Shown here one piece after another: positions 13,405 through 39,855 of a stretch of DNA of 64,000 nt; the stretch's first letter is position 1, and every line of letters begins with the position of its first letter. This stretch comes from an uncultured Bdellovibrionales bacterium (lineage in GTDB: Bacteria > Patescibacteriota > Minisyncoccia > Moranbacterales > GWC2-37-73). A program made the position numbers and the translations under genes. The DNA lies in assembly GCA_964609855.1 (NCBI GenBank), contig CAZSTB010000004.1, positions 3,740 to 67,739 of the forward strand. Reading direction: 5' to 3'. Below the pieces are notes generated by a model. It was not told where the DNA came from and did no database searches. It saw only the letters and a program-made list of their open reading frames with translations.

Positions 13405-14820
13405 CTAAACCAGTTTCTTTTTTCTTTTAACGACTTTGATGCCTGCCTCCACTAGTTGTCTTTCATCGAGTTCACTAGGGGCGCTCATCATAGGATCCTC
13501 TGCTTCACCGGTTTTCGAGAAAGCGATGACTTCTCGAATATTAGGTTCACCTTGAAGTATCATCACGATGCGATCAACTCCCGGTGCGATTCCTCCATGA
13601 GGCGGAGCACCGAATTCGAAGGCTTTAAGCATATGTCCATAATCTCGCTGAATTTTTTCTTCAGGAATTCCCATAATTTCCAGCACCTTACGCAAGGCTT
13701 CAGGTTCATGATTTCGAATGCTTCCCCCACCAATTTCAAATCCATTAAGCACGATGTCGTACTGCGTTGTCAAAATCTCTCCGATATTTTCTTTCCTCAT
13801 CAATTGCTCCATGAACTCAGGTTTCGGTCTAGAAAATGGGTTATGTGTAAATGTCCAACCACTTGAAGATTCTTCATCTTTTTCAAAAAATGGAAAATCA
13901 ACAACCCAACAGAATGCCAACAAATTAGGGTCATTCTTGTCTTCACGAATATCTGGTCTGTCGCATCCATACTTTTCCATTGATTCCTGATAAGAAATCC
14001 TCGGAAATGGCAACGCTTGAATTTTCTTTTCCGGATAATAAGTCTGAACCAATTTGATCAGCATTTCTTCAACAACATTCATCACATCTTCTTGCTCAAC
14101 AAAACTCATTTCCATATCGAGTTGAGTGAACTCCGGTTGGCGGTCTCCGCGAGTATCCTCATCGCGAAAACATCTGGCAATCTGGAAATATCTTTCCAGT
14201 CCGGCAGTCATAAGTAGCTGCTTGTATTGCTGTGGCGATTGCGGCAAAGCATAGAATTTTCCTTTATAGATGCGGGACGGTACAACATAATCACGAGAAC
14301 CCTCAGCAGTTGATTTCCCAAGGATCGGCGTTTCAATTTCAATGAAGTCTTTTTCACCCAAAAAGTCTCTGAAAAATTTCACGACCTTATGGCGCATCAA
14401 AATATTGTCGCGCATTCTTTCACTGCGAAGGTCTAGGTATCTGTATTTTAGGCGTAATTCTTCGTTAACATTTTTAGTATCTTTGTTCAATTCGAAAGGC
14501 AAAGCTTTTGATTCGTTCAAAATCTTGATAGATGCAACTTCAATTTCCACCCCGCCTGTTGCCGATTTCTCATTGCGTGCGCTCATTGGGCGCTCTTTCA
14601 CAACGCCCTCCATTTCAATCACAAATTCGCTTCTTAGACGCTTTGCATTGTCATGCGCTTCCACATGATCAGGAATGATAACTGTTTGAATAATCCCACT
14701 ACGATCCCTAAGGTCAACAAAAATAAGTTTTCCGTGATCACGCCTAATATGTACCCAACCTGCAATTTTTACGGTTTGACCAATAAATTTTGGCGTATCA
14801 ATGATTCTAATTCGCTCCAT
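13405..14820 (-). CDS. aspS: Aspartyl-tRNA synthetase, short bacterial-type lacking the GAD insertion domain
   Basis: N-terminal OB fold (GWVHIRRDHGKLIFVDLRD), class II motifs FRDEDTRGDRQPEFTQLDMEMSF and GGSIR; 471 aa. Confidence 0.9.
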   Translation of the reverse strand: MERIRIIDTPKFIGQTVKIAGWVHIRRDHGKLIFVDLRDRSGIIQTVIIPDHVEAHDNAKRLRSEFVIEMEGVVKERPMSARNEKSATGGVEIEVASIKILNESKALPFELNKDTKNVNEELRLKYRYLDLRSERMRDNILMRHKVVKFFRDFLGEKDFIEIETPILGKSTAEGSRDYVVPSRIYKGKFYALPQSPQQYKQLLMTAGLERYFQIARCFRDEDTRGDRQPEFTQLDMEMSFVEQEDVMNVVEEMLIKLVQTYYPEKKIQALPFPRISYQESMEKYGCDRPDIREDKNDPNLLAFCWVVDFPFFEKDEESSSGWTFTHNPFSRPKPEFMEQLMRKENIGEILTTQYDIVLNGFEIGGGSIRNHEPEALRKVLEIMGIPEEKIQRDYGHMLKAFEFGAPPHGGIAPGVDRIVMILQGEPNIREVIAFSKTGEAEDPMMSAPSELDERQLVEAGIKVVKRKKKLV

Positions 14821-15871: not shown

Positions 15872-16744
15872 TTAAAGTGACTTGATTTTCAAAAGCACTT
15901 CGTCAATAATCCATTTTGGCGTACTGGCGCCAGCTGTAACGGCGACTGTCTTACAATCTGCAAACCAGGCAGCATCCAATTCCTCAACTCGCGCCACAAA
16001 ATATGATTTGGGATTAATACGTAGTGCGATTTCCCAAAGCCTTGTGGAATTGGCGCTTTCAGGACTGCCAATTATAACGATGACTTCATTTTCTCCAGCC
16101 ATTTTAGTTATCTCAGTCTGCCTATGATGCGTAGTTAAACAGATAGAATCCACAACTTCAGCATGCGGATATTTCTCGCATATCTGCTTCGCTGCACGCT
16201 CAACAAATTCCTGGTCTTGTGTAGTCTGTGAAAGAATCGCCAACTTCTTATCTTTATCGGCCACAAATCCGCAAAGATCCTCGTCGGTTTCAATTAAGAT
16301 TGCTTTTTTATTGGCCCATTCAAAAATTCCCTTAACTTCCTTATGATTTTTCTCGCCGATCATGACAATTTGTGTGTCGCGATCAAAAAAGGCTTTTGCT
16401 AGTCGCTGAACCTTGATGACACGCGGACAGGTGGTATCGATAAGCGGAACTCCATGAGTTTTTGCAAGTTCATAAATTTTCGGTCCGATACCATGAGCCG
16501 TAACAACTAAAGTTCCAACCTCCCCTTTGATTTTTTCGAAAAAATTCTCAAGGGGTCCCTCAACGTGAACTTTGCGCACACCCATTTTTTCAATTTTTTC
16601 CACCACGTCACTATTATGCACCAAAGACCCAAGCACAAAAATCGGCTTTTTCACCTGCGGGTCACTCGCAATCTTTTCAACGATATCGTACGCCCTCTGC
16701 ACGCCTTCGCAGAAACCTGCGAATTTACTTAAGGTTATTTTCAT
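15872..16744 (-). CDS. ispH: 4-hydroxy-3-methylbut-2-enyl diphosphate reductase (MEP pathway)
   Basis: MKITLSKFAGFCEGVQRA N-terminus; three conserved Cys and HN/TxH motifs of IspH/LytB. Confidence 0.9.
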   Translation of the reverse strand: MKITLSKFAGFCEGVQRAYDIVEKIASDPQVKKPIFVLGSLVHNSDVVEKIEKMGVRKVHVEGPLENFFEKIKGEVGTLVVTAHGIGPKIYELAKTHGVPLIDTTCPRVIKVQRLAKAFFDRDTQIVMIGEKNHKEVKGIFEWANKKAILIETDEDLCGFVADKDKKLAILSQTTQDQEFVERAAKQICEKYPHAEVVDSICLTTHHRQTEITKMAGENEVIVIIGSPESANSTRLWEIALRINPKSYFVARVEELDAAWFADCKTVAVTAGASTPKWIIDEVLLKIKSL

Positions 16745-18888: not shown

Positions 18889-20160
18889 TTATTCCAAACG
18901 AAAATCCAAATCTTTCTCGTCAATATTACCAATTGCGGAAATCGAAACATTATCTTCATTCAAGTATTTGCTTGCAACTCGTTGAATATCTTCGTTTTTT
19001 AAATTCGCAATAATTTTCGAATATTCATCTATATCCAACAACTTTTCCTTTCCAGATACAGTTGCTTGCCAGCCATACCACCACAAATACTCATATGGAT
19101 CAACAAATTTTATAGCCAGCGAAGACACAAAGGATCGTTTGTAAATGTCCAAACTGATCTCATTAAACATGTTTGATTTTATTTTTTTAATTTCTTCAAA
19201 AATTATTTCTATCGTCTTAGTAACATTTTTCTTATCACAAGAAAAGATGAATCTTAACACGCCAGTTTGCGAGAAATTCTCAGATTCTCCATCTACCCAA
19301 TATGTAAAATCTCGCTTTAATCGCAACTCTTCAATCAGTTTGGAAATCCACTTATTTGCTAAATAATCGCGAATAAAATCAATAGCGGCTATATCCTTTT
19401 GCTCATCGCAAATAGCAGTCGCTCTGAAAGCAACTGCTACAGTTACTTGATTAGCGTCAGTTTTTTCAATGGCTATTTTCTTTGGCTCAACGAAAGTTTC
19501 ACTATCTTCAATGATATTTACACCGCCATTGTTCATTTTTTCATTCAAATACTTTCCAATATTTTCAATACTTTCATCGCCCACTGTCACAAAAGTGCAA
19601 GAACTTTGAGAATAATGACTTTGGATGAACAACTTTAAATCGCTTTCACTGATTGAATTGATACTTTCATCATCGCCGAAAAAACTTCTGCCCATCGATG
19701 AATTCTTCCAAAGCGCCTGATTAGATAAGTTCCAGATGTACTCACGCGGATTAAGCTTATTTTCCCGCATCTCATTCAACACGATATCTTTTTCTTTTTC
19801 AAGATCCTGCTCGTCAAAAACATACCAGCAAAGACCATCGGTTAAAAATTCAAGAGCTTTAAATGTTTCGCTTTTCTCCTGAATATAATATTGATGAGAC
19901 GTTTCATAGCTCGTAAAAGCATTGCACTTGATGCCATGTGACTCAATCGCCTTGAGTCTTTCAATCTCATCAGAGTATTTTTTTGTTCTCTTAACTAAAA
20001 GATGTTCCAATAGGTGCGCTAGACCCTCTTTTCCCGCAGGATCAAATCTGGATCCAGCCCTGAACCACGCCGAAACAATCGAAATCGGTAAATTCTCAAC
20101 CCTCACATTTATAAGTGTTGCTCCGTTTGCAAGTATTATCTTTTCTATTTGATGTTTCAT
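18889..20160 (-). CDS. M16-family (pitrilysin/insulinase-like) zinc peptidase
   Basis: Inverted zinc-binding motif HLLEHLL (HxxEH) followed by a distal Glu. Confidence 0.8.
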   Translation of the reverse strand: MKHQIEKIILANGATLINVRVENLPISIVSAWFRAGSRFDPAGKEGLAHLLEHLLVKRTKKYSDEIERLKAIESHGIKCNAFTSYETSHQYYIQEKSETFKALEFLTDGLCWYVFDEQDLEKEKDIVLNEMRENKLNPREYIWNLSNQALWKNSSMGRSFFGDDESINSISESDLKLFIQSHYSQSSCTFVTVGDESIENIGKYLNEKMNNGGVNIIEDSETFVEPKKIAIEKTDANQVTVAVAFRATAICDEQKDIAAIDFIRDYLANKWISKLIEELRLKRDFTYWVDGESENFSQTGVLRFIFSCDKKNVTKTIEIIFEEIKKIKSNMFNEISLDIYKRSFVSSLAIKFVDPYEYLWWYGWQATVSGKEKLLDIDEYSKIIANLKNEDIQRVASKYLNEDNVSISAIGNIDEKDLDFRLE

Positions 20161-20245: not shown

Positions 20246-20456
20246 TACTTGAGCCTTTTCCTTCTCCATCTGATTCGATCCAACTTATCCGTGGTGCGCT
20301 TCTGCAATTACCTTTCCAACATAAAGTCCAAGTCCTGTGCCGCCAACGTGAAGACGTGAAACGTCCTTGCTCGCCTCGATTCGACAAGACGTATCATTGA
20401 GTCGAAGCGGGTCGACGCGAGGCAGGCCGCGTGAGAATTTTTTGAAAAGATATGAA
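20246..20456 (-). pseudogene. Fragment of a histidine-kinase 3' end (HATPase_c C-terminus), interrupted by a 62-bp GC-rich palindromic insertion at 20368-20429
   Basis: Nucleotide-level similarity to the 3' ends of the HK genes at 26545.. and 29601.. (...GCCAACGTGAAGACGTGAAACGTC...GAAAAGATATG...); the insertion replaces about 7 bp. Confidence 0.7.
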
Positions 20457-20490: not shown

Positions 20491-21042
20491 TTATTCATAA
20501 GAGATGTTTCTTGTTTTTTTTAATATACTTGAAAAGAAAGCGTTATTTCCAAATATACGTAAAGCACATTCCTTAAAAATTTTGCCTTTGTATTTAAAAG
20601 AATTTATATAATTTCTAATCTCCAATCTCAATGCATCATCTCCATGCCTAAGCAATATACTTTCAGCTTCGCAGACCCGTACATTATGTTTGTATTTGCT
20701 GATCAAATCATTAGTGCGCCTTCCATGGTAGCTATTAGTAATAACAATGTTCGAATCGTTCAATGAAAAATTACTCACTATTTCCATAATTGCTGATATA
20801 TTCGACTCCGTGGTTGATGAACCGAGAATATGTGAAGGTAAATCTATAATTGAAAACCTCTCATAATATTGTTTCATATGCTCCGCCCCAGAAATATTTT
20901 TTTTAAATGACCCTCCAACAAAAAAAATATTTGAAACCTTGTAATTGCCAATATAAAGCAGAGCAGCTTTTATACGCAACTTTGCATCATAAGAAAGCTC
21001 TTTCATTGAACCATCGAAGTGATATAGCACGAAAATGTTCAT
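20491..21042 (-). CDS. DUF218 (YdcF/SanA/ElyC-family) protein
   Basis: ITNSYHGRRT matches the T-[SN]-x-[FY]-H-x-x-R signature of DUF218. Confidence 0.5.
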   Translation of the reverse strand: MNIFVLYHFDGSMKELSYDAKLRIKAALLYIGNYKVSNIFFVGGSFKKNISGAEHMKQYYERFSIIDLPSHILGSSTTESNISAIMEIVSNFSLNDSNIVITNSYHGRRTNDLISKYKHNVRVCEAESILLRHGDDALRLEIRNYINSFKYKGKIFKECALRIFGNNAFFSSILKKTRNISYE

Positions 21043-21115: not shown

Positions 21116-22000
21116 TCATTTCGCGTTTTCTCTGTACCACGATATTGTATGCGTCATTCCCTCCTCCAAAGCAACGCACGGCTTCCACAACGTCAGCGCA
21201 CGTAGCGGCTCTATATCAGCAACGATTCTAGTGTATTCATCCTCTCCCGGACGCATCGCAATGTGCTGTATTTCCGATGCGCTTTCAGTCAAAGATATGA
21301 TCATTTTAGCTAGATCATCAGTCACTGTTTCCACACCACTACCAATTTCAAAAGTTTTTCCTTCGCATTGCGAGAAGTTTTCCATAATAGCAATAATTGC
21401 GGAAATAGCATCGTACACATAGATTAAATCCATTGTTTGCATTCCCGATCCATAAACAACAACGGGATCACCTTTGATGGCCGATACGATCCACGTAGGA
21501 ACAGCCTTTTTGTAGCCACTTTCTTCAAACAAAGGCTGACGGCCAGCATACACATTGAACCATTTAGCAATGACCGCTTCAAGACCGAATTCTTTGCGGT
21601 ACATTTCCACAAAATTCTCCATAGCAATTTTAGTAATTGTATACGGATTTATCCAACAATTCGGTTTGGATATTGCAATCAACTTTGCATTGAATTCACT
21701 ACAAGCCTCCATCACATTAACAGAACCGCCAATATTAACCTCTACAGCGCGACTAACATTGAACACAAGCTCGTTAGTCCCAAGCAAACCAGCCAGATGA
21801 ATCACCATATGACTTCCCCTGACTACATTTCTAACATCGATCGGATTTCTGATGTCACCAGAGACAAAACGAGCATCAACAAATGAACCCCAGCGTGGCT
21901 CTACTTGATCAAAGATGATAACATCATGACCAAGTCCGACAAGTTTATCAACGAGAAAACTACCTACAAATCCGCTTCCACCAGTGATAACAACTTTCAT
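21116..22000 (-). CDS. NAD-dependent epimerase/dehydratase (extended SDR)
   Basis: N-terminal Rossmann motif VVITGGSGFVGSFLVDKL; YxxxK catalytic region (YTITK). Confidence 0.8.
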   Translation of the reverse strand: MKVVITGGSGFVGSFLVDKLVGLGHDVIIFDQVEPRWGSFVDARFVSGDIRNPIDVRNVVRGSHMVIHLAGLLGTNELVFNVSRAVEVNIGGSVNVMEACSEFNAKLIAISKPNCWINPYTITKIAMENFVEMYRKEFGLEAVIAKWFNVYAGRQPLFEESGYKKAVPTWIVSAIKGDPVVVYGSGMQTMDLIYVYDAISAIIAIMENFSQCEGKTFEIGSGVETVTDDLAKMIISLTESASEIQHIAMRPGEDEYTRIVADIEPLRALTLWKPCVALEEGMTHTISWYRENAK

Positions 22001-22130
22001 GACATCCTCCTTGGATAATACTAGTAAAGAGCAATAAATAAACTTCCATGAATGCTAATAATATCTAAGCACATTAGTTCTATTTTTGCAAACAAAAAAG
22101 AAATTTATTTACACTACGTGCTCCACAGGT

Positions 22131-22370
22131 ATCTCAATAATAAATCTGCTTCCTAATCCGTTCGCCGTCGGATTCAACCCAGATTTACCTCAGAGTGAAT
22201 TTATTCTGCTTCCGGGGCTTGGCCGTGATGCGCTTCAGCAATAGCCTTGCCAACATAGAGTCCAAGACCTGTGCCACCTACGTGAAGACGTGATACGTCC
22301 TTTCACGTGAAAACTTTTTGAAAAGATATGGAATTTCTTCTCTTGGAATGCCGGTTCTTGTGTCGGAAAC
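22131..22370 (-). pseudogene. Second histidine-kinase 3'-end fragment (about 75 C-terminal codons of an HATPase_c domain)
   Basis: Aligns to the 29615-29860 HK 3' end (ATCTCAATGATAAATCT..., TTGCCAACRTAGAG, CGTGAAGACGTGA, TTGAAAAGATATGGAATTTC) with an internal ~30-bp indel; homology stops abruptly at 22370. Confidence 0.7.
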
Positions 22371-22409
22371 GCACCTTAACTCCCTAGAAAGGTGGTGATT
22401 CGTGGGAGG
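22370..22409. repeat. ~38-bp direct-repeat motif, left copy (CGCACCTTAACTCCCTAGAAAGGTGGTGATTCGTGGGAGG)
   Basis: About 90% identical to 26001-26037 in the same orientation; degenerate third copy at 22591-22620. Confidence 0.7.
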
Positions 22410-22622
22410 AAATGAAGCTATTGCCATAATTTGCTTTATTTAAAGTAAAAATTTTATTCATTTACTCTCCAGAAATACTCCGTGATGAGTTAACTAACAC
22501 AATTTATTAACTTTTATACTTAGATAATTACCGTTTACATACAATATCTTAGCATATTAGTTAAAAAAAGCAGGCTCTTATGCATACTTATCCCTCAACT
22601 AGGAAGCGATTCGTGGGAGGAA

Positions 22623-23159
22623 TTAGAGCAAATTTAAATAATCCAACCCAAGATACCCAACTTCGACATCTGAGCTCTTTCCACTTCTAAGCAATTCTCT
22701 AAATTCTGAAATTGACATTAGCACAACCTCCGTGAATTCATTTTCCTCAAGTTTTTGTTCGGAAACTTTCTCACAATCAGTAACTACAACGCAATTTTTT
22801 TTCATCGTAGAATAACCATCGCCAATAATAGATGTTACAAATTCTGCGTTTCCCTTATACCCAGTCTCCTCCAAAAGCTCTCTTTCTGCCGCTTGCTTTG
22901 GAGTCTCGCCTTTGTCGACATAACCGCCAGGCAATTCGATAAGAATTTCTTTCGGTCCTGGTCTAAATTGCTTAACGAGAACGATTTGTTTATCTTTCGT
23001 TATCGCCAAAGTAGCCACAAAAACACTTTCTTTCTTTATATAGAAATCATTTACTTCCCCATTTGGCAATTTGAAGTCAACTTTTTCAATGCCTCTCCCA
23101 TATTTACTAAAAATTTCCTCTCGGGAAATTTCTTCCCATTCTTCTATTTCATTTAACAT
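22623..23159 (-). CDS. Nudix hydrolase (ADP-ribose pyrophosphatase-like)
   Basis: Nudix box GGYVDKGETPKQAAERELLEETGY. Confidence 0.8.
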   Translation of the reverse strand: MLNEIEEWEEISREEIFSKYGRGIEKVDFKLPNGEVNDFYIKKESVFVATLAITKDKQIVLVKQFRPGPKEILIELPGGYVDKGETPKQAAERELLEETGYKGNAEFVTSIIGDGYSTMKKNCVVVTDCEKVSEQKLEENEFTEVVLMSISEFRELLRSGKSSDVEVGYLGLDYLNLL

Positions 23160-23258
23160 ATTATATTTTTTAATCTAATAAAAACAAGGTGAATTAATTT
23201 ATAATCCACCTTGATGCTAACACAGTTCGCACTTTTAATCAACAAACGTTGATAGCTA

Positions 23259-24431
23259 TTAAAAGAAATTATCATTAGAAACACCCAAATTAAATGGTCT
23301 ATCAAGATATTTCTTTACAATCTTGTTGTGCTCCCAATTTCTGCAGAATAACGAATTGCAGCACTCACTCCTCATTTTGCGAAAATTATTGATTGCATTA
23401 CTATCGCAATTTGGCAAATCCGCAATTTGGCAAATCGATAATTCATGCAATCTGTATTCGGCTAAGGTTAAGCAGGGATACATATAGCCGTCTGGAGCTA
23501 TCAACTGATAAGCAAGACATACGGAACATTCATCTAGACTTTCAACAAAAACATTACTGGGATTAGTGATATTAATAAGCCTGTTTAAACCACCATTGAT
23601 TAATTGAGAAAACAGACCCATATTACTCTTTCTCCTAAGAAAATATTCGAGACCTTCGCACCCCCTGAATTCATCTTTCATGTTACCCAAAAGAACAATT
23701 AATTGCTCTTTATCAGGTAAAAAATTGATATTTTCCTCATGAAGCGCTTGTGTCAATTGCGTCGGGCGAGACATCAAGAAGGCAGGTTTGAATTGGATGT
23801 GCATCCTTTCAAGAGCTCTGTTATCATCCTTATATCTCAAATACACTTCTCTTATGAAAGGAATGATATCCGACATATTCTTTCTATGGAAAAGAAAGTG
23901 CACCCCAACATGAGGAATCTCTACACAATGCTTCAGGTAGAATTCGATATTACCTAAAACTTTCCAGTATAATTCAGCGTTCCTCCCAGAGTATTTTCCA
24001 TCCTCAATTGAATATACTGAAACCCTAACCCAATCAATGCATTTTCGCCATAAACCATCGGGAATTATTACCCCGTTAGTTATTAAGCCGATTTTAACAT
24101 TTGGGATTTTTGCGAGCTTTAGAACAGCATTATCGAATTTTGGATAAAGAGTAGGTTCGCCACCGCCAGCAATCGTTATCACTTTTGGCTTTATGAATCT
24201 AGCGATATTATCCAACAACTCAAAAGGGATTTCTTTGTCGCCTAATCCACGGAAATGACAGCCTGAACAATTTAAGCAACATTTATCAGTAAGTTGCAAC
24301 TCGATATGTCCAGATTGACATAGCAAACCTCTATTTGCATCTGGTGAATCCAAGGAGATTCTCTTTTTTCTAATTAATTCCAGATGATTTAAGATTCGAT
24401 TTTTATCAGTTGCAACATTCGCATAGACCAT
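23259..24431 (-). CDS. Radical SAM enzyme with a C-terminal Cys-rich SPASM/twitch-like domain
   Basis: CLNCSGC (CxxxCxxC) cluster, GGGEPTLYP SAM-binding motif, C-terminal CSVC...C...C...CC...C auxiliary-cluster cysteines. Confidence 0.75.
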   Translation of the reverse strand: MVYANVATDKNRILNHLELIRKKRISLDSPDANRGLLCQSGHIELQLTDKCCLNCSGCHFRGLGDKEIPFELLDNIARFIKPKVITIAGGGEPTLYPKFDNAVLKLAKIPNVKIGLITNGVIIPDGLWRKCIDWVRVSVYSIEDGKYSGRNAELYWKVLGNIEFYLKHCVEIPHVGVHFLFHRKNMSDIIPFIREVYLRYKDDNRALERMHIQFKPAFLMSRPTQLTQALHEENINFLPDKEQLIVLLGNMKDEFRGCEGLEYFLRRKSNMGLFSQLINGGLNRLINITNPSNVFVESLDECSVCLAYQLIAPDGYMYPCLTLAEYRLHELSICQIADLPNCDSNAINNFRKMRSECCNSLFCRNWEHNKIVKKYLDRPFNLGVSNDNFF

Positions 24432-24462
24432 TGTAATCTCCTTGTACCCATATTATTCAGGG

Positions 24463-25662
24463 TCAGATAAAGTTAATAGACATATTGTCTTCGCATAAAA
24501 CCTTCTCGTAAATTTCATTATGAGGAGAATATGTGCACCTTGGACAGCTACTTAAATCAAGTTTATCGTACATCTTCCAATGGTTGTCATTCCCCCATAC
24601 ATTAAGAATATCCCCAATATTTCTTAGATTATGGGAAAGTTCTAACATCGAATCACCCCTCCTGTCACAGCATTGACAAAGCGTGAAAGAATCAGGATAG
24701 TCCCCAGAGTCAGGTGGTGAAAAAACAGTCGTCATAAACAATGCATGACACTTAACGAAATTGTTCTTTTTATCGAAGTCAGGCGTGAACTTATGAGTAA
24801 CTCCGTATATGGAAAAATTTTCATCTTCCATTTCCCTCGCCACTCTCAATTTATCATAAAACATCGAAATCGTTTTATCATCAAAGGAGATGTTCCCTTT
24901 CGAATACCATGGTTTGCCAACAGGTCTGATATGAATACTTTTACATCCAATTGCTTTAGCCAATTTCGTAGCCACATCAATCTCATGGACATTTCTTTCA
25001 TGAACAAGAAATTTATAGGTCACGCCAAACGACAATGGTTTTTGAGCTAAATTTGTAGAATATTTATGAGAATACTCTACTAGCTTTTGCATGTTTTTAA
25101 TGACTCTATCAAATTCAGATAAAGACACTCCTTTCAAGCCAGCAAACGTATTTGCCGCACCACTATCGACTGAAACAGAAACCCAATGACATCTGGACAA
25201 GGATTCGATAAAATCGCCAATATGGCTTCCATTGGTTACAACACCAACATCAATATCTCTATCAACAAGATTATCTATGAAGAACCCTGTTTCACTGTTC
25301 AGAAGAGGCTCGCCTCCTCCAGCTATACAAACAGCTTTCACTCCATATTTATTTCCTTTGCATTTCCAATCGCCCAATGCTTTAGCAATTTCTTCCAGAG
25401 CAACTCTGGAAAGCCGTTGCCTTGATTTTTTATTAATAATAGCTTTGGAATTACACCAAATACAATCATAGTTACATTCATTGGTTGGGTCGACAGTCAC
25501 TAAAACTGGCGGGGGGATTATTCCACCTCTTTCGATAGAACGCCAACGTTCTAAATGAGCTATTACTTTCAAGCTGTTAAAAGGATTAAAAAACCTACCA
25601 AAGCTCCATTCTCCCTCTGTTTTATTGGCTAAGTCTTGACTTTCTTTTTCTGAATGTTTCAT
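24463..25662 (-). CDS. Radical SAM enzyme with a C-terminal Cys-rich SPASM/twitch-like domain (paralogous to the upstream neighbour)
   Basis: CNYDCIWC (CxxxCxxC), GGGEPLLN motif, C-terminal CQCC...CPRC...C cysteines; RBS GGAGA 8 nt upstream. Confidence 0.75.
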   Translation of the reverse strand: MKHSEKESQDLANKTEGEWSFGRFFNPFNSLKVIAHLERWRSIERGGIIPPPVLVTVDPTNECNYDCIWCNSKAIINKKSRQRLSRVALEEIAKALGDWKCKGNKYGVKAVCIAGGGEPLLNSETGFFIDNLVDRDIDVGVVTNGSHIGDFIESLSRCHWVSVSVDSGAANTFAGLKGVSLSEFDRVIKNMQKLVEYSHKYSTNLAQKPLSFGVTYKFLVHERNVHEIDVATKLAKAIGCKSIHIRPVGKPWYSKGNISFDDKTISMFYDKLRVAREMEDENFSIYGVTHKFTPDFDKKNNFVKCHALFMTTVFSPPDSGDYPDSFTLCQCCDRRGDSMLELSHNLRNIGDILNVWGNDNHWKMYDKLDLSSCPRCTYSPHNEIYEKVLCEDNMSINFI

Positions 25663-25819
25663 TTTTCACCTCACTTTGATTTTTATGAGAGACTCATTTT
25701 TGAACTGCTATTCATTTTTTAAGGGACATCAAAGAATAACACAATAAATCCGAAAGTCAATGTTACGCTTTTTCGCCAAAACAAAAAACACCTCGCGAAA
25801 AAGTGTTTTCATGCCTACA

Positions 25820-25866
25820 GCCCGCCTCGTGTCGACAAGCGAATGTCTTCGCGAGTCGAGGCGGGC
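25820..25866. repeat. GC-rich palindromic element (GCCCGCCTCG...CGAGGCGGGC), related to the insertion inside the HK fragment at 20368-20429
   Basis: 9-bp perfect terminal stems; shared CGCCTCG-TTCGACAAG / GAGTCGA-GGCGGG halves with 20368-20429. Confidence 0.6.
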
Positions 25867-26000
25867 AATACAAAAAGCAAGCTAATCGTAAGCTATTGTG
25901 ACTAGTCCTAATGGTATGTTTATAAGAAGTTTTTTGGTTTTACTCTGATAAATCAGAGTAAACGACCCCTAGAATTTGGTCAATGTCCGAAGACATCAAC

Positions 26001-26037
26001 CGCACCTTAACACCCTAGAAGAGGTGACTCGTGGGAG
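26001..26037. repeat. ~38-bp direct-repeat motif, right copy (CGCACCTTAACACCCTAGAAGAGGTGACTCGTGGGAG)
   Basis: Same-orientation near-copy of 22370-22409; the pair brackets the Nudix + 2 rSAM cassette. Confidence 0.7.
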
Positions 26038-26080
26038 ATTGGGAAATAACTAAATCAATGCACAAACACCATCCAATTCT

Positions 26081-26536
26081 TTAAAAAGAAGGTGCATTGT
26101 AACCATATAATTCAATATATTTTAGAAAATTTGACCTGCTTGCTAGTGATAAATCTTCAGGATTAATTTCAGACAATTCAATCCACCTAACCTCATCACA
26201 TTTACCAGGCTCCATTGTTTTTGCTTCGCCAGAAATGTGTTTTGCAATGTACGTTGTTGTCACCCAGTGTTGTCCCTCTTCTTCTATTATATGATCAACA
26301 ATTTCAAGAAGTTTTAGGATTTCTATTTCGATATCATTTTCTTCTCTTACTTCCCTTTTTATAGCATCTTCCAATTTCTCACCAAAATCAACTCCACCAC
26401 CAGGAAACTCCCAAAGCCCTCTTTCATTTCTAGCCAAGTTTCCTCTTTTTGATACTATAACTTTTCTTTCATCATTGAAGACTATCGCTCCAACGCCCAC
26501 GCCTATATAGTCTTTGCCTTTTTTCATATTTTTCAT
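26081..26536 (-). CDS. Nudix hydrolase (MutT-like)
   Basis: Nudix box GGGVDFGEKLEDAIKREVREENDIEI. Confidence 0.8.
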   Translation of the reverse strand: MKNMKKGKDYIGVGVGAIVFNDERKVIVSKRGNLARNERGLWEFPGGGVDFGEKLEDAIKREVREENDIEIEILKLLEIVDHIIEEEGQHWVTTTYIAKHISGEAKTMEPGKCDEVRWIELSEINPEDLSLASRSNFLKYIELYGYNAPSF

Positions 26537-26544
26537 AAATTTGT

Positions 26545-28128
26545 TTAATCCACATGCTCAACTGGAATTTCAATAATAAATCTTGAGCCTTTTCCTTCTC
26601 CGTCTGATTCAACCCACATTTTACCATGATTAGCTTCAACTACTTTCTTGCCGAAATATAATCCGAGTCCGGTTCCGGTGGATGTTAATCTTTTCTGATT
26701 ACTTCCACGTGAGAATTTACCAAATATATTTCCCAGATCTTCTTTCGGAATACCAATTCCAGTGTCAGAAACAGTTATGCGCACCGCCTTAGCTTGCAGC
26801 TTAGCGCTGACAATGACACTCCCCGCTTTCGTGTATTTTAGAGAGTTATCAACAAGATTAGAAACGGCTTCAAAAATCTTACCTCGGTCTATCGAGACTA
26901 GTGGCAATGATTTTTTAGGAAGCTCAAGTGATAACTTTAAGTCCTTCTCCTTAGCTGAAAGTTCGAATGAATCAACAATTTCCTTTAAGATATTTTCAAT
27001 TTTCTCATTTTTAAATTCGAAAACCATTCTTCCAGATTCAATTCTCGAAATATTCAAAAGATCTTCAACCAAATGAAGCAGTCGATTGTTAGCATTGCTG
27101 ATTCTATCCAAAGGATGCTTTAATTCCTCAGGAATTACTCCATAATTTCCCTCAGAGATGAGTGATAAAAACCCTTTCGAGGTAGTTAACGGTGTCCTTA
27201 ATTGATGAGATGCGATTGAGATAAATTCCGATTTCGCTTCATCAAGTTTTCGAAGTTGCGCATTGGCAATTTCAAGTTCTTCTTTTCTCAATACTTCTTC
27301 CCTAACAGATTTTATCAAAAGGTAACCGAATATAATCGAAAATACAAGCATCACGATTGCCGCGGAAAACTCATAAAATCCCTTTGTTATGAATATTTCT
27401 ATAGTTAAGAATATCCAAAGTGAAAAGGTAAATAATTCTGTTGTAATTATTTTTACATTTAAAAAATGGTATTTCAATATCGCCAAGAAAATAATAAATC
27501 CAAATACTGAGGTATACACTGGAGCTAAAATTGTAAGGTAAAAAATTCCCAACAATGGTAAAATCAAGTTTGTTCCAATAGCTAACAATAAAAAAATGGA
27601 AATTCCCAACAGAAGAAGCTGCATGGAATTTTTTATTTCAGAATTTTTTTCAAAATAATACTTAGTAGAGATACGTATAGCAGCATACGCAAGAGTTCCT
27701 AGCATATATATACTATAAACCAACATACCCCAACCGAATTCCAAATCAACAATTCCATCATTCGGTATAATTTTTTTTATCAACACTGGACTTAAGCTAA
27801 TAGCTAAAACAAAGATAAATAGAATTGCGATAATAGATTTCCACACGCTCTGCATTCGCTGATCTTCAGGGAATGTTTTTGCAAACATCGCTAATCCAGT
27901 GCCAAATATCGCAGTAAAGAAAAAAATTAATTTATTAATCCAAGTAAGTGCATTTATTGAATATTCAAGATTAGAGTAATAATTAGCGATTATCCAACCC
28001 GAGAGACCAATAATTGACCAAAAGAGATATCTTCCCGATAGTGATTTTCTTAAATGAATAGCAATTAAAACTAGTAATAAAAAATTAGCAAAAACACTTA
28101 CTAATAAAGTAATGAACTGTCCATTCAT
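26545..28128 (-). CDS. Sensor histidine kinase with N-terminal 7-8 TM sensor domain (HisKA + HATPase_c)
   Basis: H-box SHQLRTPLTTSKGF; coiled-coil linker; C-terminal G1/G2 boxes (DTGIGIP, GTGLGL). Confidence 0.85.
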   Translation of the reverse strand: MNGQFITLLVSVFANFLLLVLIAIHLRKSLSGRYLFWSIIGLSGWIIANYYSNLEYSINALTWINKLIFFFTAIFGTGLAMFAKTFPEDQRMQSVWKSIIAILFIFVLAISLSPVLIKKIIPNDGIVDLEFGWGMLVYSIYMLGTLAYAAIRISTKYYFEKNSEIKNSMQLLLLGISIFLLLAIGTNLILPLLGIFYLTILAPVYTSVFGFIIFLAILKYHFLNVKIITTELFTFSLWIFLTIEIFITKGFYEFSAAIVMLVFSIIFGYLLIKSVREEVLRKEELEIANAQLRKLDEAKSEFISIASHQLRTPLTTSKGFLSLISEGNYGVIPEELKHPLDRISNANNRLLHLVEDLLNISRIESGRMVFEFKNEKIENILKEIVDSFELSAKEKDLKLSLELPKKSLPLVSIDRGKIFEAVSNLVDNSLKYTKAGSVIVSAKLQAKAVRITVSDTGIGIPKEDLGNIFGKFSRGSNQKRLTSTGTGLGLYFGKKVVEANHGKMWVESDGEGKGSRFIIEIPVEHVD

Positions 28129-28213: not shown

Positions 28214-28828
28214 TCAGGAAATCAACATCTCATAAAAAGCATTCTGCTTCTTCTCGAAAGATGCCATCTGTTCATCCATATTGAGAACACAAAGTACCGT
28301 TGATGAACCCATGTAAAACATGGGGTTCCCAATGCGGTGAATCCGCCAACCGACCATATCCATAACCCGCAGAGCTCTTGCATCAATGGCAATCAGCCAG
28401 TGTTTAATATGATTGTTGAGACTGTAGAGAAGGCTTGTTTTATAAATTCCCCAGGAAACTTTCTTGTCATTATTTCCTTTTCCCACAGCCAAAGCGCCAA
28501 CAACAACAGACTTTCCGGACTCAAATTTACTTATATGTTCTAACGCGCACTCCTTTAATTGACCATCCCACAATGTAAGGAGCTCATTCGCGCAAACGAT
28601 TGGCGAAAACTTCAACGTCCCTAACACATTATCATCACAATATGCGACAACGTACTCGTCTTCCTTGTGATTGTCAGGAATGATTCGATCAGGATATGCA
28701 TTCTCAATATATCCCAAATCTAAATAAACATCGTGCCTCAATTTTTGGGCCATCTCTCCTAATGTACCAGCTTGAGTGACAAAATATCTTACACCTTGAA
28801 AACTACTCATCTCTTGAGCCGTGTTCAT
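28214..28828 (-). CDS. GNAT-fold N-acyltransferase of the LuxI / FeeM N-acyl amino acid synthase-like family
   Basis: RHDVYLDLGY (cf. LuxI RxxVFxxxLGW), EDEY acidic cluster, YCDDNVLGTLKF (cf. LuxI YKDNNLIGSARL); overlaps the thiF-like gene by 4 nt. Confidence 0.5.
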   Translation of the reverse strand: MNTAQEMSSFQGVRYFVTQAGTLGEMAQKLRHDVYLDLGYIENAYPDRIIPDNHKEDEYVVAYCDDNVLGTLKFSPIVCANELLTLWDGQLKECALEHISKFESGKSVVVGALAVGKGNNDKKVSWGIYKTSLLYSLNNHIKHWLIAIDARALRVMDMVGWRIHRIGNPMFYMGSSTVLCVLNMDEQMASFEKKQNAFYEMLIS

Positions 28829-29592
28829 AATCCCCCCTTTTTGATTGTAAAGTCATAAGTATCAAAGAACAATATATTTGGAACAGTTACGGGTTTTTCA
28901 TTTCTGATCACAAATGAAATAACCTGACTGGAAACCATTGCTGCAACCAATGCAACCGAGGAGGAAATGCTTGGCATTGACATTTCGCCACCCAAAACTT
29001 TCTCGAGCATCTCATTTGAGATATATGCAGGAACCTCTGGCATATATTTCATTGCATCGATACTACTATCATTTTCATTATATTCAAAATATTCTTCAAA
29101 TGTCATTCCACTAGGATCAAAACAAAGAGTGCTTGAACCCCATCCAATATTAGCACCCATAAAAACAAATTTATTCTGGATTCTTGCTTCTTTCGCCAAC
29201 ATTACAGATATTTCAGGCACTGAATATTCAATTTCATCAATAATTATGTCAGAGTAATTCACAAACTCTTTTACATTCTCTTCGGTGATGCCCTGATTAA
29301 AAACCACCACCTTAATGTCTGGATTAATTTTTCGCAGCTCCTGAGCAACAACTTCTGCTTTATTCTTACCCAATGTTTCAGAATTTGAACCAAACTGCCT
29401 ATTTATATTTTGTACTTCAAAAAACTCAGGGTCTGCTAAGATTATCGTTCCAACTCCAAAACGAGCAAGTCTTTCAGCCAGAAGACCACCATCCCCACCC
29501 GCACCAGCAATTGATATTGAAAGTTTTGATATTTTTTCTTGCTGCCATTCAGTAACGAAACCTATATTTCTTTCAAATAGTTTATTTTTCAT
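28825..29592 (-). CDS. ThiF/MoeB/HesA-family E1-like adenylyltransferase (no CxxC zinc motif)
   Basis: Nucleotide-binding motif IAGAGGDGGLLAERLARFGVGTIILADPEFFEVQNINRQ. Confidence 0.75.
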   Translation of the reverse strand: MKNKLFERNIGFVTEWQQEKISKLSISIAGAGGDGGLLAERLARFGVGTIILADPEFFEVQNINRQFGSNSETLGKNKAEVVAQELRKINPDIKVVVFNQGITEENVKEFVNYSDIIIDEIEYSVPEISVMLAKEARIQNKFVFMGANIGWGSSTLCFDPSGMTFEEYFEYNENDSSIDAMKYMPEVPAYISNEMLEKVLGGEMSMPSISSSVALVAAMVSSQVISFVIRNEKPVTVPNILFFDTYDFTIKKGGL

Positions 29593-29600
29593 AAATTTGT

Positions 29601-31325
29601 TTATGCCACATGCTCCACTGGAATCTCAATGATAAATCTTGAACCGAGGTCGGCGCCATCAGATTCAACCCAGACTTGGCCGTGGTGGGCTTCGGCGATT
29701 GCTTTGCCAACGTAGAGCCCGAGGCCGGTTCCGCCAACGTGAAGACGTGAAACGTCTTTTCCACGTGAGAATTTCTTGAAAAGATATGGAATTTCCTCCC
29801 TTGGGATTCCTATTCCAGTATCAGAAACTGTGATGCGAACCATCTGACCAAATTCAGATTTCTTCTCCGGAATAACGAAACCATTTTCATCGATCAAAAC
29901 TCCAGTTTCTTTAAGCTCAGCCTTTACGGTCACACCGCCCTTTTCCGTATATTTCAACGCATTATCAATGAAATTAGAAACCAGCTCTCTAATCTTAGTA
30001 TAATCCATGATAATTTCAGGCAGTGGGGTTTCGGGAAGCTTTAAGTCAAGATAAAACTTTTTCGTTTTTGCTATCAAAATGAAGTTATCATTTAATTCCT
30101 TGATGAGTTTTTCAACATTGGATTTTTCAAAAGCAAATTGCATACGTCCCGATTCAATTCGAGAGACATTGAGCAAATCTTCAATTAAACTCACTAAACG
30201 CTCAGAAGATGAATAAACTTTTTCCATTGCCCCCTTAACGCTTTCGGTTAATTCTCCATATGAACCCTCGAGCAAAAGTGAAGCAAATCCCTTGATTGCC
30301 GTAATCGGAGTTCTGAGTTGATGAGAAGCAATTGAGATAAATTCAGTTTTCGCATTATCCAACTTCCTAAGCTGATCATTCGCCGTAGCTAATTTATCAG
30401 CCATTGCCTGAAGTTGCTCCTTGCGTTCAACTTCTTGCTTGACAGACCTAATGAGCATATATCCAAAGCCAAGGGATAACGCTAGCGTCACTCCAGTTAA
30501 AACCATCGCCGTAGTGTTTTGAACGAAGAAGAATTGTGAACCGACAAGCAAAATCATGGAGACTACCAATGCTTGTGCACCAATTAGCTTTATTTCAAAT
30601 GTTTTATATTTAACAATCATATAAGCAAGGAAAGCCACAAAAATAGGCATTCCAAAAAGCTTATACTGCTCAAACTTCCAATCAAGCTCCATTGTAATAA
30701 GAAAGTTTCCAATTGAAAAAGTTATCAACAAAATCACAATTCCCAAGGTAAAAAGCAAAATTTGCTTCTTATGTGCTACTTCAGCCTTTTTGTATCCCCT
30801 TATGGTAACTCCCGCTATCCATAAAATCAAAAGAATTTCCACAATATAAATATATATCCAAAGTGGCCCCTCAAAAGCCGCCCTATCGCAATTCGTTAAA
30901 TCATAGCCCAATAAATTATAGCGAGTATGCGTTAAAAAAATAACCGGCAAAAAAACCAAACTTACCAATATTTTCTTAAGAAAAGAAATGTCCGTGCCGT
31001 AAACAAATAAATAAGTTAAGTACAGAGCTGCTGCATACATAAGAAGCTCTAATGGAGCCATTGCTGACCAAAAAAACATGATGTATTGATCTTTTTCGCT
31101 TGCCCATAATATCAAATCAAAATAAACCCACAATGAAAACACAACTGTTAAAAAAAACAAAATTTTGTTTATCAACTCTTTTCTTCCTTTAAAAAAAACG
31201 AAGAAGCCAATAATCAAAGATAGAATAAGAGGTACCAAATGAGAATAGTAAATCAAGGGCTCATACACATTTGCTGAAAAAATAAGGAATTTCGCAGCAT
31301 CCCAATTACAAGATAGTGGATCCAT
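29601..31325 (-). CDS. Sensor histidine kinase with N-terminal multi-TM sensor domain (paralogue of 26545..28128)
   Basis: H-box SHQLRTPITAIKGF; HATPase_c G-boxes; same architecture and linker (QLRKLDxAKxEFISIASHQLRTP) as the other HK. Confidence 0.85.
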   Translation of the reverse strand: MDPLSCNWDAAKFLIFSANVYEPLIYYSHLVPLILSLIIGFFVFFKGRKELINKILFFLTVVFSLWVYFDLILWASEKDQYIMFFWSAMAPLELLMYAAALYLTYLFVYGTDISFLKKILVSLVFLPVIFLTHTRYNLLGYDLTNCDRAAFEGPLWIYIYIVEILLILWIAGVTIRGYKKAEVAHKKQILLFTLGIVILLITFSIGNFLITMELDWKFEQYKLFGMPIFVAFLAYMIVKYKTFEIKLIGAQALVVSMILLVGSQFFFVQNTTAMVLTGVTLALSLGFGYMLIRSVKQEVERKEQLQAMADKLATANDQLRKLDNAKTEFISIASHQLRTPITAIKGFASLLLEGSYGELTESVKGAMEKVYSSSERLVSLIEDLLNVSRIESGRMQFAFEKSNVEKLIKELNDNFILIAKTKKFYLDLKLPETPLPEIIMDYTKIRELVSNFIDNALKYTEKGGVTVKAELKETGVLIDENGFVIPEKKSEFGQMVRITVSDTGIGIPREEIPYLFKKFSRGKDVSRLHVGGTGLGLYVGKAIAEAHHGQVWVESDGADLGSRFIIEIPVEHVA

Positions 31326-31343: not shown

Positions 31344-31841
31344 TTAGCGTTGCGTTTTAAGGCCCAGCAATTCAGCATTTTGTTCCAAATAAATCTTCTT
31401 AAAATACGTAGGGAAGACAGGGAAATATTTTCTAAAAAATAATGGCGGCAAATGCCTCGTACCTCGAATTATCCCCCTGCAATCACGAGCACCACATCCA
31501 CATCTCATGGTCCACGATGTATCTTCAGAAATTGAATAATCAAAAGTTATTTCTTCGTTTTTTTTAATGTTTCGCAATGCCACAAACGTAACTCTACCCC
31601 TTACGCTCGTATTTGGATCACAGGAGTGATTTATATAAACATAGGGTTTAATCGGGTCAATCCAGAGATCCTTATCTATCCCTACAATATTCGGCATTGA
31701 CAATAGATTTTTCCTATTGCTATTATTCATCTTCAAAATTCGACCCTTCATGATGAACACTACCTCCCCTTTTTTAATATCCCTATTTGAAAACAAACCA
31801 GTACCTGCAATTTCAGATTTACCTACATAAATTTTTGACAT
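31344..31841 (-). CDS. SET-domain protein (putative protein lysine methyltransferase) with post-SET Cys cluster
   Basis: GTGLFS, NHSCDPN, FDYS motifs; C-terminal CGCGARDC. Confidence 0.75.
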   Translation of the reverse strand: MSKIYVGKSEIAGTGLFSNRDIKKGEVVFIMKGRILKMNNSNRKNLLSMPNIVGIDKDLWIDPIKPYVYINHSCDPNTSVRGRVTFVALRNIKKNEEITFDYSISEDTSWTMRCGCGARDCRGIIRGTRHLPPLFFRKYFPVFPTYFKKIYLEQNAELLGLKTQR

Positions 31842-39738: not shown

Positions 39739-39855
39739 AAAACCTGGATCCCCAGCCCGTCTCGAATCGGCGAATGAATGAGAGCCGAGGCGGATCAAGC
39801 TGAGGATGACATATACGAATTGTCATTCCCGACTCGATCGGGAATCCAGGCCCGT
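39739..39855. repeat. Composite GC-rich repeat A3, joining family-A modules (GGGGATCCAGG, GTCAAGCTGAGGATGACA, TGTCATTCCCG..CGGGAATCCAGGCCC) with a family-C core (GCCCGTCTCG...GCCGAGGCGGATC)
   Basis: Module-by-module matches to 37305-37385 (reverse orientation), 18364-18423 and 43385-43420. Confidence 0.65.

Follow-up and report, generated by a model that had tools for sequence, protein, structure and literature searches.

A tandem pair of radical SAM enzymes in a patescibacterial genome, most likely tailoring nucleotide sugars for a surface glycan

Radical S-adenosylmethionine (SAM) enzymes that act on nucleotide-linked sugars are already known, namely DesII and BlsE. DesII is a deaminase of thymidine diphosphate (TDP)-4-amino-4,6-dideoxy-D-glucose; it holds a single [4Fe-4S] cluster and has three domains, including a six-helix N-terminal domain and a C-terminal beta-hairpin domain (PMC11434129). 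BlsE, which carries CxxxCxxC and GGEP motifs, decarboxylates cytosylglucuronate, derived from uridine diphosphate (UDP)-glucuronate, to cytosylarabinopyranose (PMC3715490). A third enzyme, BtrN (4m7t), has one fully Cys-ligated auxiliary [4Fe-4S] cluster in its twitch domain and acts on a carbohydrate-type small-molecule substrate, and the SPASM domain is defined by the seven-cysteine motif CX9-15GX4C-gap-CX2CX5CX3C-gap-C with two auxiliary clusters (PMC6231123). A twitch domain is a truncated SPASM domain, in which a beta-hairpin with CX9-15GX4C is followed by a helix and one auxiliary cluster is bound. Here we describe two adjacent radical SAM genes, rSAM-B and rSAM-A, in a 64-kb stretch of DNA (the window; positions 3,740 to 67,739 of contig CAZSTB010000004.1), whose close homologs are annotated as Candidatus Moraniibacteriota/Patescibacteria. 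Their products most likely constitute a nucleotide-sugar-tailoring pair for a surface glycan, rather than peptide maturases, a reading that we hold with moderate confidence; for any single reaction our confidence is far lower.

All genes within 18.9-31.3 kb of the window lie on the minus strand. The coordinates given in a preliminary description of this DNA are correct, and rSAM-A, rSAM-B and two Nudix hydrolase genes (Nudix1 and Nudix2) are all on the minus strand. The features that concern the pair directly are listed here, with ORF standing for open reading frame, UTR for untranslated region, SDR for short-chain dehydrogenase/reductase and NDP for nucleoside diphosphate.

25733-25760, minus strand: promoter-like site TTGACT-16 nt-TG-TATTCT, from a consensus scan and the alignment of relatives.
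25663-25732, minus strand: conserved AT-rich 5' UTR with the Shine-Dalgarno sequence GTGAGGTG and a 10-codon mini-ORF, from alignments of relatives.
24463-25662, minus strand: rSAM-B, 399 aa, radical SAM core and Cys-bearing C-terminal domain.
23259-24431, minus strand: rSAM-A, 390 aa, radical SAM core and twitch-like C-terminal domain.
23175-23213, minus strand: terminator-like hairpin found by scan, conserved between rSAM-A and Nudix1.
22623-23159, minus strand: Nudix1, 178 aa, PF00293, of the ADP-ribose/ADP-sugar pyrophosphatase type.
21116-22000, minus strand: SDR of the NDP-sugar epimerase/4,6-dehydratase type, 294 aa, PF01370 and PF16363, LegB- and dTDP-glucose-4,6-dehydratase (RmlB)-like.
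20491-21042, minus strand: DUF218 protein, 183 aa, PF02698, accompanying the SDR gene.

Both proteins belong to the radical SAM superfamily: in a Pfam search their PF04055 scores, 44.2 and 54.3 bits, exceed the cut-off of 29.5. The CxxxCxxC and GGGEP motifs previously claimed for them were located by a motif check, at C51/C55/C58 and residue 89 in rSAM-A and at C63/C67/C70 and residue 115 in rSAM-B. To call the two paralogous, as had been done, is an overstatement: their identity is 25%, confined to ~180 core residues, each has a separate orthologous family, and they are not recent or close paralogs. The Pfam search of rSAM-B returned Radical_SAM only. Neither protein comes near the cut-off of any NCBIfam model (the best is W_rSAM_matur, with 49 and 67 against 380 bits), so that this search did not assign either to a housekeeping radical SAM family; such an assignment is what the preliminary description had named as fatal to its reading. 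For the BlsE equivalog TIGR04466, rSAM-B scores 21.3 against 400 bits and rSAM-A is unlisted, which places both outside that family. A sequence search of the PDB gave only marginal core matches, to NifB and QueE, and a literature search for a characterised homolog of either protein brought up only the BlsE and DesII papers as relevant.

The C-terminal domains were at first taken for SPASM domains. Profile search and motif both speak against this: neither protein matches PF13186 or TIGR04085 at E <= 0.01, CX2CX5CX3C is absent from both, and the invariant C-terminal cysteines number four in rSAM-A and five in rSAM-B. In rSAM-A, C302-X12-G315-X4-C320 spans a predicted hairpin (strands 308-311 and 316-318), which fits the definition of a twitch domain, and C358 and C363 are likewise invariant. 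In rSAM-B the invariant residues are C305, C331, C332, C373 and C376, without the CX9-15GX4C spacing. The twitch model NF033640 reaches 23 bits against a cut-off of 170. Judged by their number, these four or five cysteines would suffice in each protein for one auxiliary Fe-S cluster of the twitch-like kind.

AlphaFold models of the two proteins (mean pLDDT 92.8 for rSAM-A and 85.7 for rSAM-B) both show an alternating beta/alpha core. Searched with Foldseek against the PDB, both retrieve DesII (8hzv) and BlsE (7vob) as best matches, with E-values of 1e-9 to 1e-12 and TM-scores of 0.5-0.69. Thus the two closest folds are those of enzymes that work on sugars linked to a nucleotide or nucleobase.

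The neighbourhoods of rSAM-B homologs point in the same direction. Among the candidates, 736 homologs are significant. The eight closest full-length matches (80-98% identity) belong to the candidate phyla radiation (CPR) group, and those outside it (~45-50%) come from Desulfobacteria, Geobacter, Planctomycetota, Brocadiales, Synergistaceae and Nanoarchaeota. In three genome loci the homolog stands immediately upstream of a UDPG/MGDP-dehydrogenase gene, beyond which lie genes for TylF-type methyltransferases (sugar O-methyltransferases), another radical SAM protein and Methyltransf_21 proteins; one of the three adjoins flagellin genes and another NeuB. A metagenome scan added 76 non-CPR loci, 59 of them informative (flank of at least 1.4 kb), and a gene of the UDP-glucose-dehydrogenase type was found near the homolog at a distance of <=150 nt in 24 of the 59 and of <=3 kb in 31. 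These dehydrogenases pass TIGR03026 and are closest to the UDP-glucose 6-dehydrogenases AglM/TuaD. An RGP-family gene (PF03214), which we take to represent the family of plant UDP-arabinopyranose mutases, adjoins the rSAM-B homolog in five loci. Where the dehydrogenase is missing, the neighbours are glycosyltransferases (GT1, GT2, GT10), methyltransferases and ABC transporters.

The rSAM-A family is rare. About 50 full-length homologs were found; in a set of 1.84 billion representatives 13 clusters reach E <= 1e-30, and of 185,579 species genomes about ten have the gene. It follows an rSAM-B homolog directly in a CPR locus (L015; 64% and 56% identity), and the tandem recurs in genomes of Lachnospiraceae, Roseburia and Eubacteriales, at 39-41% and 36%. 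Two pairs lie within exopolysaccharide clusters: in Roseburia (L028) the pair comes after EpsG, an amylase-like gene and an rSAM-TSCPD gene, and in L030 it is placed between GT2, GNAT and DegT/DnrJ/EryC1 aminotransferase genes on one side and a GT5/GT1 fusion on the other. A solo rSAM-A sits in a module ordered SDR epimerase, rSAM-A, a 327-aa protein of unknown type, AAA_33 kinase and GT1, and distant relatives of rSAM-A carry a fused cytidylyltransferase domain (PF02348). On gut contigs of the Lachnospiraceae type (L018-L020, 6829-9579) an identical module, consisting of the pair and a 124-aa protein, is found in differing mobile contexts; the 124-aa gene, checked as a cryptic Nudix or precursor gene, has no Pfam match. 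Three giant proteins (P0325, P0326 and P0345; 4,305-6,428 aa) include a domain that shares 34-37% identity with the core of rSAM-A (residues ~11-217).

An SDR gene of the type in the window adjoins the radical SAM genes in L001-L004, L017/L025, L026 and L101, and in L001-L004 the epimerase-DUF218 pair is directly upstream of them. The SDR at 21116-22000 is therefore a likely pathway partner of the pair.

On these grounds the earlier suggestion that nucleotide-linked chemistry suits the locus better than a standard maturase of RiPPs (peptides synthesised ribosomally and modified post-translationally) holds: homologs lie in glycan loci, the folds are nearest to DesII and BlsE, and Nudix1 aligns with a fitting subfamily. 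The two different twitch-like enzymes would act in succession, each by a radical transformation, on a nucleotide-activated sugar meant for a glycan of the cell surface. Each would cleave SAM reductively to give a 5'-deoxyadenosyl radical, which would abstract a ring hydrogen from the NDP-sugar, and the substrate radical might be resolved through elimination, decarboxylation or oxidation. The auxiliary cluster could accept or conduct electrons, a role proposed also in the twitch dehydrogenase BtrN, and the nearby SDR 4,6-dehydratase/epimerase would furnish or use up a keto-deoxy sugar.

In the rSAM-B family at large, the frequent presence of a neighbour of the UDP-glucose-6-dehydrogenase type argues for an NDP-hexuronate substrate, and together with the RGP-type genes it suggests a BlsE-like decarboxylation to a pentose. 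This is the most specific hypothesis that the gene context supports for the family as a whole. A fuller and more tentative proposal, possible though not one that we would favour, is that rSAM-B performs an oxygen-sensitive remodelling of NDP-hexuronates in anaerobes and CPR bacteria (for example through a BlsE-like decarboxylation that turns UDP-glucuronate into a UDP-pentose, on which RGP-type mutases would draw), and that rSAM-A adds a second radical step (deoxygenation, epimerisation or ring rearrangement), the product being an undescribed sugar of flagellin, S-layer or CPR surface.

Several observations weigh against nucleotide-sugar tailoring. Neither family has a characterised member within the libraries and literature searched and, as no model comes near its cut-off, the assignment of reaction and substrate draws only on context and fold. 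The fold ranking itself discriminates weakly, because SuiB, SkfB, PqqE, anSME, MoaA and viperin come next at similar E-values. Auxiliary-cluster binding in both proteins is deduced from their sequence only, and DesII has a single cluster (PMC11434129) whereas rSAM-A and rSAM-B conserve extra cysteines, so their chemistry may differ. The SDR and DUF218 genes are the only sugar-type neighbours in the window, which has no NDP-sugar dehydrogenase or glycosyltransferase; a tblastn search of its 64 kb found no NDP-sugar dehydrogenase, NeuB, TylF, RGP or second SPASM radical SAM protein such as occur in the loci of other phyla. With the SDR as the sole candidate partner, the substrate is less clear here than for the family. 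Finally, the pair of L018-L020 is a bare two-gene module with no glycan genes beside it.

These last contexts bear on a different proposal, that of a viperin-like, nucleotide-modifying defence or toxin module that moves between variable islands. It would turn a common nucleotide into an analogue (for instance a chain terminator), while the phosphates would be dealt with by Nudix, phosphatase and kinase genes. The L018-L020 module lies beside a serine recombinase with AbiJ and ISL3, or beside a methyltransferase with KilA-N; HAD, AAA_18 and AbiEii genes are downstream of the pair in L001, and L102 has Apyc1-like and restriction-modification genes nearby. The radical SAM cores give weak matches to the PADLOC pVip and NCBIfam viperin models (E 1e-8 to 1e-14), and both Nudix proteins match the PADLOC candidate PDC-S07. 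We nevertheless regard this proposal as improbable. The scores for the viperin model NF038283 (33.8 and 50.4 bits) are far under its cut-off of 180, only the generic SAM-binding core at the N-terminus being aligned, and neither protein can be counted as a viperin. Prokaryotic viperin is a single-cluster enzyme of ~280 aa that makes ddh-nucleotides, and viperins are not known to have a Cys-rich C-terminal domain, whereas both proteins of the window (390-399 aa) have one. Moreover, the large majority of homolog contexts concern glycan biosynthesis and not defence, and 2.9 million viral contigs contained no true rSAM-A and only 13 rSAM-B-like loci, one of which is the same 115-kb contig as a metagenome locus (L137).

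The organisation of the pair is consistent with a single transcription unit. rSAM-B and rSAM-A are separated by 31 nt and are predicted to form a two-gene operon, with its own promoter and leader, that ends in an intrinsic terminator. In an alignment of the window with L005, L102, L021 and L105, conservation runs from the -35 box (25760) to the start of rSAM-B, and similarity among the relatives ends just upstream of that box. The terminator-like element at 23175-23213 (12-bp stem, 5-nt loop, U-run; hairpin at 23185-23213), which lies past the stop of rSAM-A and ahead of the start of Nudix1, is kept in five lineages with one compensatory change of a C-G to a U-A pair and a consensus energy of -17 kcal/mol. 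A riboswitch-like fold of the rSAM-B 5' UTR (~70 nt) was considered and rejected: there is no convincing consensus structure (-4.7 kcal/mol), no covariation and no Rfam match, and in both intergenic regions Rfam gave chance-level matches only at the gathering and E-value thresholds. Within the leader, the mini-ORF at 25683-25715 (minus strand; MNSSSKMSLS*) retains its frame and TAA stop in L005, L102 and L021; its start is ATG, GTG or, in one lineage, ATT, and it has no Shine-Dalgarno sequence and no Cys. It could be a regulatory leader or merely conserved UTR.

Twitch- and SPASM-type radical SAM enzymes are often peptide maturases, and the pair might accordingly mature a RiPP or a protein whose gene is elsewhere or very small, such as the mini-ORF with its conserved frame and stop. 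SuiB, SkfB, PqqE and anSME are indeed among the fold matches, and in L015 the pair is followed by an 86-aa ORF, a 47-aa ORF and a SPASM radical SAM gene. However, the N-termini of both proteins are short (40-55 residues) and purely helical, from which it follows that neither contains a RiPP recognition element (RRE), and no PqqD/RRE match was found in Pfam. As the preliminary description had noted, no precursor-type small ORF lies on the same strand: the 418-nt spacer upstream of rSAM-B has none of at least 40 aa, and no conserved one of at least 20 aa adjoins the pair in the window, the 10-codon leader ORF being the only candidate, with the defects given above. A 20-aa ORF on the plus strand is antisense to the conserved promoter/5' UTR block, and nothing further emerged in its favour. 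Since, in addition, the NCBIfam scores for peptide maturases are all negligible and sugar enzymes are the neighbours across phyla, maturation of a peptide or protein is very improbable, the least probable of the explanations considered, and the pair does not qualify as RiPP maturases.

Nudix1 follows the terminator. It matches PF00293 with 64.7 bits (cut-off 21.1), its residues 7-166 align with bacterial ADP-ribose pyrophosphatases/NudF of solved structure (E 1e-15 to 1e-17) and its residues 57-150 with NUDT5 (E ~2e-12), and it remains under the NCBIfam equivalog cut-offs (NudE, 55.8 against 169 bits). By these alignments it would belong to the ADP-ribose/ADP-sugar pyrophosphatase-type hydrolases. 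In the window, L001-L008, L021, L102 and L104-L106 alike, rSAM-B is followed by rSAM-A and then by a gene for a 178-aa Nudix protein. All these trio-bearing genomes are close relatives (the radical SAM proteins of those compared are 77-88% identical), which limits what gene order can tell.

From this order a three-gene pathway might be proposed in which Nudix1 is obligate: the radical SAM enzymes would modify an ADP- or NDP-sugar, and Nudix1 would cleave its pyrophosphate to release the sugar phosphate or clear off-pathway products. The substrate type of Nudix1 would suit such a task, alignment with the relatives breaks off directly at either end of the trio, and in L186 (2770-8659) a 72%-identical ortholog closes a module of NTP_transferase, PGM/PMM, Fe-ADH and IMPase (inositol-monophosphatase) genes. 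We consider the proposal doubtful for the following reasons. Nudix1 has 1002 matches, with orthologs 60-75% identical, nearly all of 176-180 aa, across the Patescibacteria, while rSAM-A is rare, and loci such as L184 (beside Fic) and L186 have the ortholog and no radical SAM gene. The conserved hairpin stands between rSAM-A and Nudix1, which has no Shine-Dalgarno sequence; the trio is limited to genomes whose radical SAM proteins are at least 77% identical; distant rSAM-B/rSAM-A pairs (L015, L018-L020, L028 and L030) are without Nudix; and the "different contexts" of the trio are partly one locus, as the window and L005 share a housekeeping block. The CPR-wide distribution of Nudix1, the terminator and the Nudix-less pairs lead us to treat the radical SAM pair as the functional unit, and for the same reasons the previously proposed pairing of radical SAM with Nudix genes does not stand as a conserved layout. 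Nudix1 may trim or recycle the nucleotide sugar without being a defining part of the system; its role as an accessory of the pair is possible but unlikely. In L186, genes for an integrase of the phage type, for an N6/N4 methyltransferase and for an OLD-like nuclease lie past the Nudix1 ortholog. The 3' end of Nudix1 was also considered as a general integration site that carries a repeat, and this was rejected, no repeat-like sequence being present past the orthologs of L184 and L186.

The surroundings of the operon comprise the following features.

29601-31325, minus strand: HK3, intact histidine kinase.
28825-29592, minus strand: ThiF-like E1, from Pfam/NCBIfam domain searches.
28214-28828, minus strand: FeeM/AHL-synthase-like acyltransferase, from Pfam/NCBIfam domain searches.
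26545-28128, minus strand: HK2, intact histidine kinase.
26081-26536, minus strand: Nudix2, MutT/NUDT15-like.
26001-26037, no strand given: repeat R2, full copy, 44 nt past the Nudix2 stop and ~230 nt outside the conserved radical SAM block.
25820-25866, no strand given: GC-rich palindrome, member of a small dispersed family.
22591-22620, no strand given: repeat R1', degenerate copy, 3 nt past the Nudix1 stop.
22370-22409, no strand given: repeat R1, full copy, directly at the point where the kinase pseudogene is truncated.
22101-22367, minus strand: kinase 3' fragment of the HisKA_7TM type, last ~88 codons, from matches to intact kinases, with stops and frameshifts.
~20248-20454, minus strand: second kinase 3' fragment, from a decayed HisKA_7TM histidine kinase.
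18889-20160, minus strand: M16 peptidase, from Pfam/NCBIfam domain searches.

Nudix2 begins 8 nt past the HK2 stop. Two Nudix genes are thus present on the two sides of the pair, as first described; the implied repetition is not borne out, since they share 32% identity over 56 aa only and belong to different subfamilies. The genes for the ThiF-family E1-like adenylyltransferase (PRK08223-like) and the FeeM/AHL-synthase-like N-acyltransferase overlap by 4 nt and stand directly behind a histidine kinase (28214-29592, minus strand). Upstream of the kinase cluster are a SET-domain protein (31344-31841) and an IS200-like Y1 transposase (33696-34409).

The direct repeats R1 and R2 are real, aligning at 34 of 37 positions with one 2-nt and one 1-nt indel, and the degenerate copy at 22591-22620 was confirmed. 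Their sequence motif is CTCCCACGARTCACCNCCTTTCTAGGG, and a 12-nt core occurs in three copies in 64 kb, all at this locus, against 0.2 expected (none of 100 shuffles reaches three). Read on the gene strand, the repeat is CCTCCCACGAATCACC(T/A)CCTTTCTAGGGAG, in which the part ATCACCTCCTTTCTA presumably resembles the 3' tail of 16S rRNA, the organism's own 16S being outside the window; on the opposite strand it reads as an extended Shine-Dalgarno sequence, 6 nt, and then GTG GGA GG. The short repeat is always found just past a gene stop, where the alignment of relatives is lost. R1 and ~80 nt beyond it read, compared by eye, as homologous to 16540-16655 of L001, in which copies are placed at ~13040 past the Nudix gene (degenerate, in the position of R1'), at 14487-14516 past AAA_18 and at 16615-16648 past AbiEii. 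Downstream of the last of these copies, at 16900-17260 of L001, is a tRNA-like sequence; the stretch ahead of it has an ending similar to that of a tRNA/tmRNA acceptor arm.

On account of these repeats, the segment 22370-26037 had been described as a repeat-bracketed cassette, that is, as a discrete insertion, mobile or recombined, with its ends in the ~38-nt repeats; such an insertion would be orthogonal to the function of the genes. The concentration of three copies here, the position of R1 at the truncation point of the kinase pseudogene, the loss of alignment at the copies and the fact that the L001 copies separate successive gene modules are all consistent with it. The comparison with relatives argues against it. 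The conserved block extends from ~25770 to 22620, its downstream similarity stopping right after the Nudix stop, and therefore leaves both R2 and the palindrome outside. A mismatch-tolerant scan found no copy of the repeat in L005, L021 and L102, which have the same rSAM-rSAM-Nudix genes, and L001 has no copy upstream of rSAM-B, its copies flanking other genes. There is no integrase or transposase inside the segment, whose GC content (0.35-0.39) is not distinct from that of its flanks (0.30-0.45, close to the ~0.3-0.45 across the window). The motif is thus missing beside the same genes or, in L001, present without bracketing them, an outcome that the preliminary description had listed as refuting its reading, and the segment does not classify as a repeat-bounded mobile cassette of the integron-cassette, MITE (miniature inverted-repeat transposable element) or insertion-sequence-like kind; a discrete insertion is quite improbable.

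The decayed 3' fragment at 22101-22367 is confirmed as a histidine-kinase remnant, its blocks matching HK2 and HK3 at their 3' ends with 61-86% identity, with in-frame stops and frameshifts; the matches are those of the direct-repeat families D1, D3, D4, D5 and D7 with the intact kinases. The GC-rich palindrome at 25820-25866 was likewise found as described, with 20-nt arms that are 80% complementary. On the minus strand an AT-rich hairpin and a T-run come after the palindrome, which folds together with this second hairpin at -41.8 kcal/mol (z = -4.7) and is absent upstream of rSAM-B in the relatives. A sibling at 20368-20428 lies inside the second kinase fragment, splitting blocks that are contiguous in intact kinases, and a weaker copy is at 39755-39795. 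Such a family of GC-rich palindromes in an AT-rich genome suggests a mobile repeat of the REP (repetitive extragenic palindromic)/MITE-like kind.

Both kinase fragments are directly 5' of intact genes (M16 peptidase and SDR epimerase), mirroring the intact kinases that precede ThiF and Nudix2, which suggests that recombination among kinase paralogs reshuffles units of "kinase + cargo". The SDR-DUF218 genes, for example, are upstream of the radical SAM genes in L001 and downstream in the window, preceded both times by a kinase or kinase fragment. Further downstream, the window and L005 have a block of housekeeping genes in common (class-II tRNA synthetase, LytB, response regulator and AspRS) and hence represent the same chromosomal locus with variable filling. 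We therefore read the short repeats, kinase fragments and palindromes as scars and small repeats of a rearrangement-prone region, and not as marks that delimit a mobile cassette.

New here are a widespread family of radical SAM proteins in glycan loci, tied to UDP-glucose dehydrogenase, and its tandem with a rare, twitch-like one. If nucleotide-sugar tailoring is correct, rSAM-B stands for a large family, present in many anaerobic phyla, for which the libraries and literature searched offer neither a curated family model nor a characterised member. Radical SAM chemistry would then enter ordinary nucleotide-sugar pathways of surface glycans, the characterised comparators DesII and BlsE being enzymes of antibiotic biosynthesis, and the pairing with UDP-glucose dehydrogenase would offer a directly testable substrate hypothesis. 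CPR surfaces mediate host attachment, and the pair may specify a lineage-variable surface sugar in these bacteria. Of the first description, the cassette, the SPASM membership, the missing RiPP substrate and the Nudix design principle have had to be given up. For a twitch/SPASM radical SAM gene without a precursor gene, it thus seems advisable to check for a glycan context ahead of a RiPP reading, and where short repeats flank a gene set, to compare relatives prior to calling cassette boundaries.

Set against known systems, Nudix1 resembles the ADP-ribose/ADP-sugar pyrophosphatases (NudF, NUDT5 and the Ndx of T. thermophilus) by alignment and falls below the NudE equivalog cut-off. The SPASM peptide maturases (anSME, PqqE, SuiB and the sactisynthases) share with the pair a radical SAM core, a Cys-containing C-terminal domain and moderately similar folds; rSAM-A and rSAM-B differ from them in having no seven-Cys motif, PF13186/TIGR04085 match, RRE or precursor gene. 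BtrN is among the fold matches of rSAM-A, which has the CX9-15GX4C motif and two further invariant cysteines. On the other hand, that match ranks 20th with a TM-score of 0.38, rSAM-B lacks the spacing, and the substrate of BtrN is not nucleotide-linked.

The likeness to DesII is that of the top structural match of both proteins, with a three-domain layout. Its substrate, an NDP-4,6-dideoxyhexose, is made by a 4,6-dehydratase and a DegT-type aminotransferase, and an SDR dehydratase/epimerase (window, L001, L017 and L101) or a DegT aminotransferase (L030) adjoins the radical SAM genes. The differences lie in the four to five extra conserved cysteines and short N-termini of rSAM-A and rSAM-B, and the identity is 9-13%. 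BlsE, of the blasticidin S pathway (7vob), is the second-best distinct structure for both models. Its identity to them is 12-15%; rSAM-B is ~70 residues longer, with an N-terminal extension and five invariant C-terminal cysteines, its family is found in surface-glycan loci of many phyla and not in a nucleoside-antibiotic cluster, and no dehydrogenase stands beside rSAM-B in this CPR window. BlsE nonetheless offers a close parallel, as a radical SAM enzyme with CxxxCxxC and GGEP motifs that acts on a hexuronate linked to a nucleobase (PMC3715490). The TM-scores are 0.58/0.69 for rSAM-B, and the rSAM-B family usually adjoins an enzyme that produces UDP-hexuronate.

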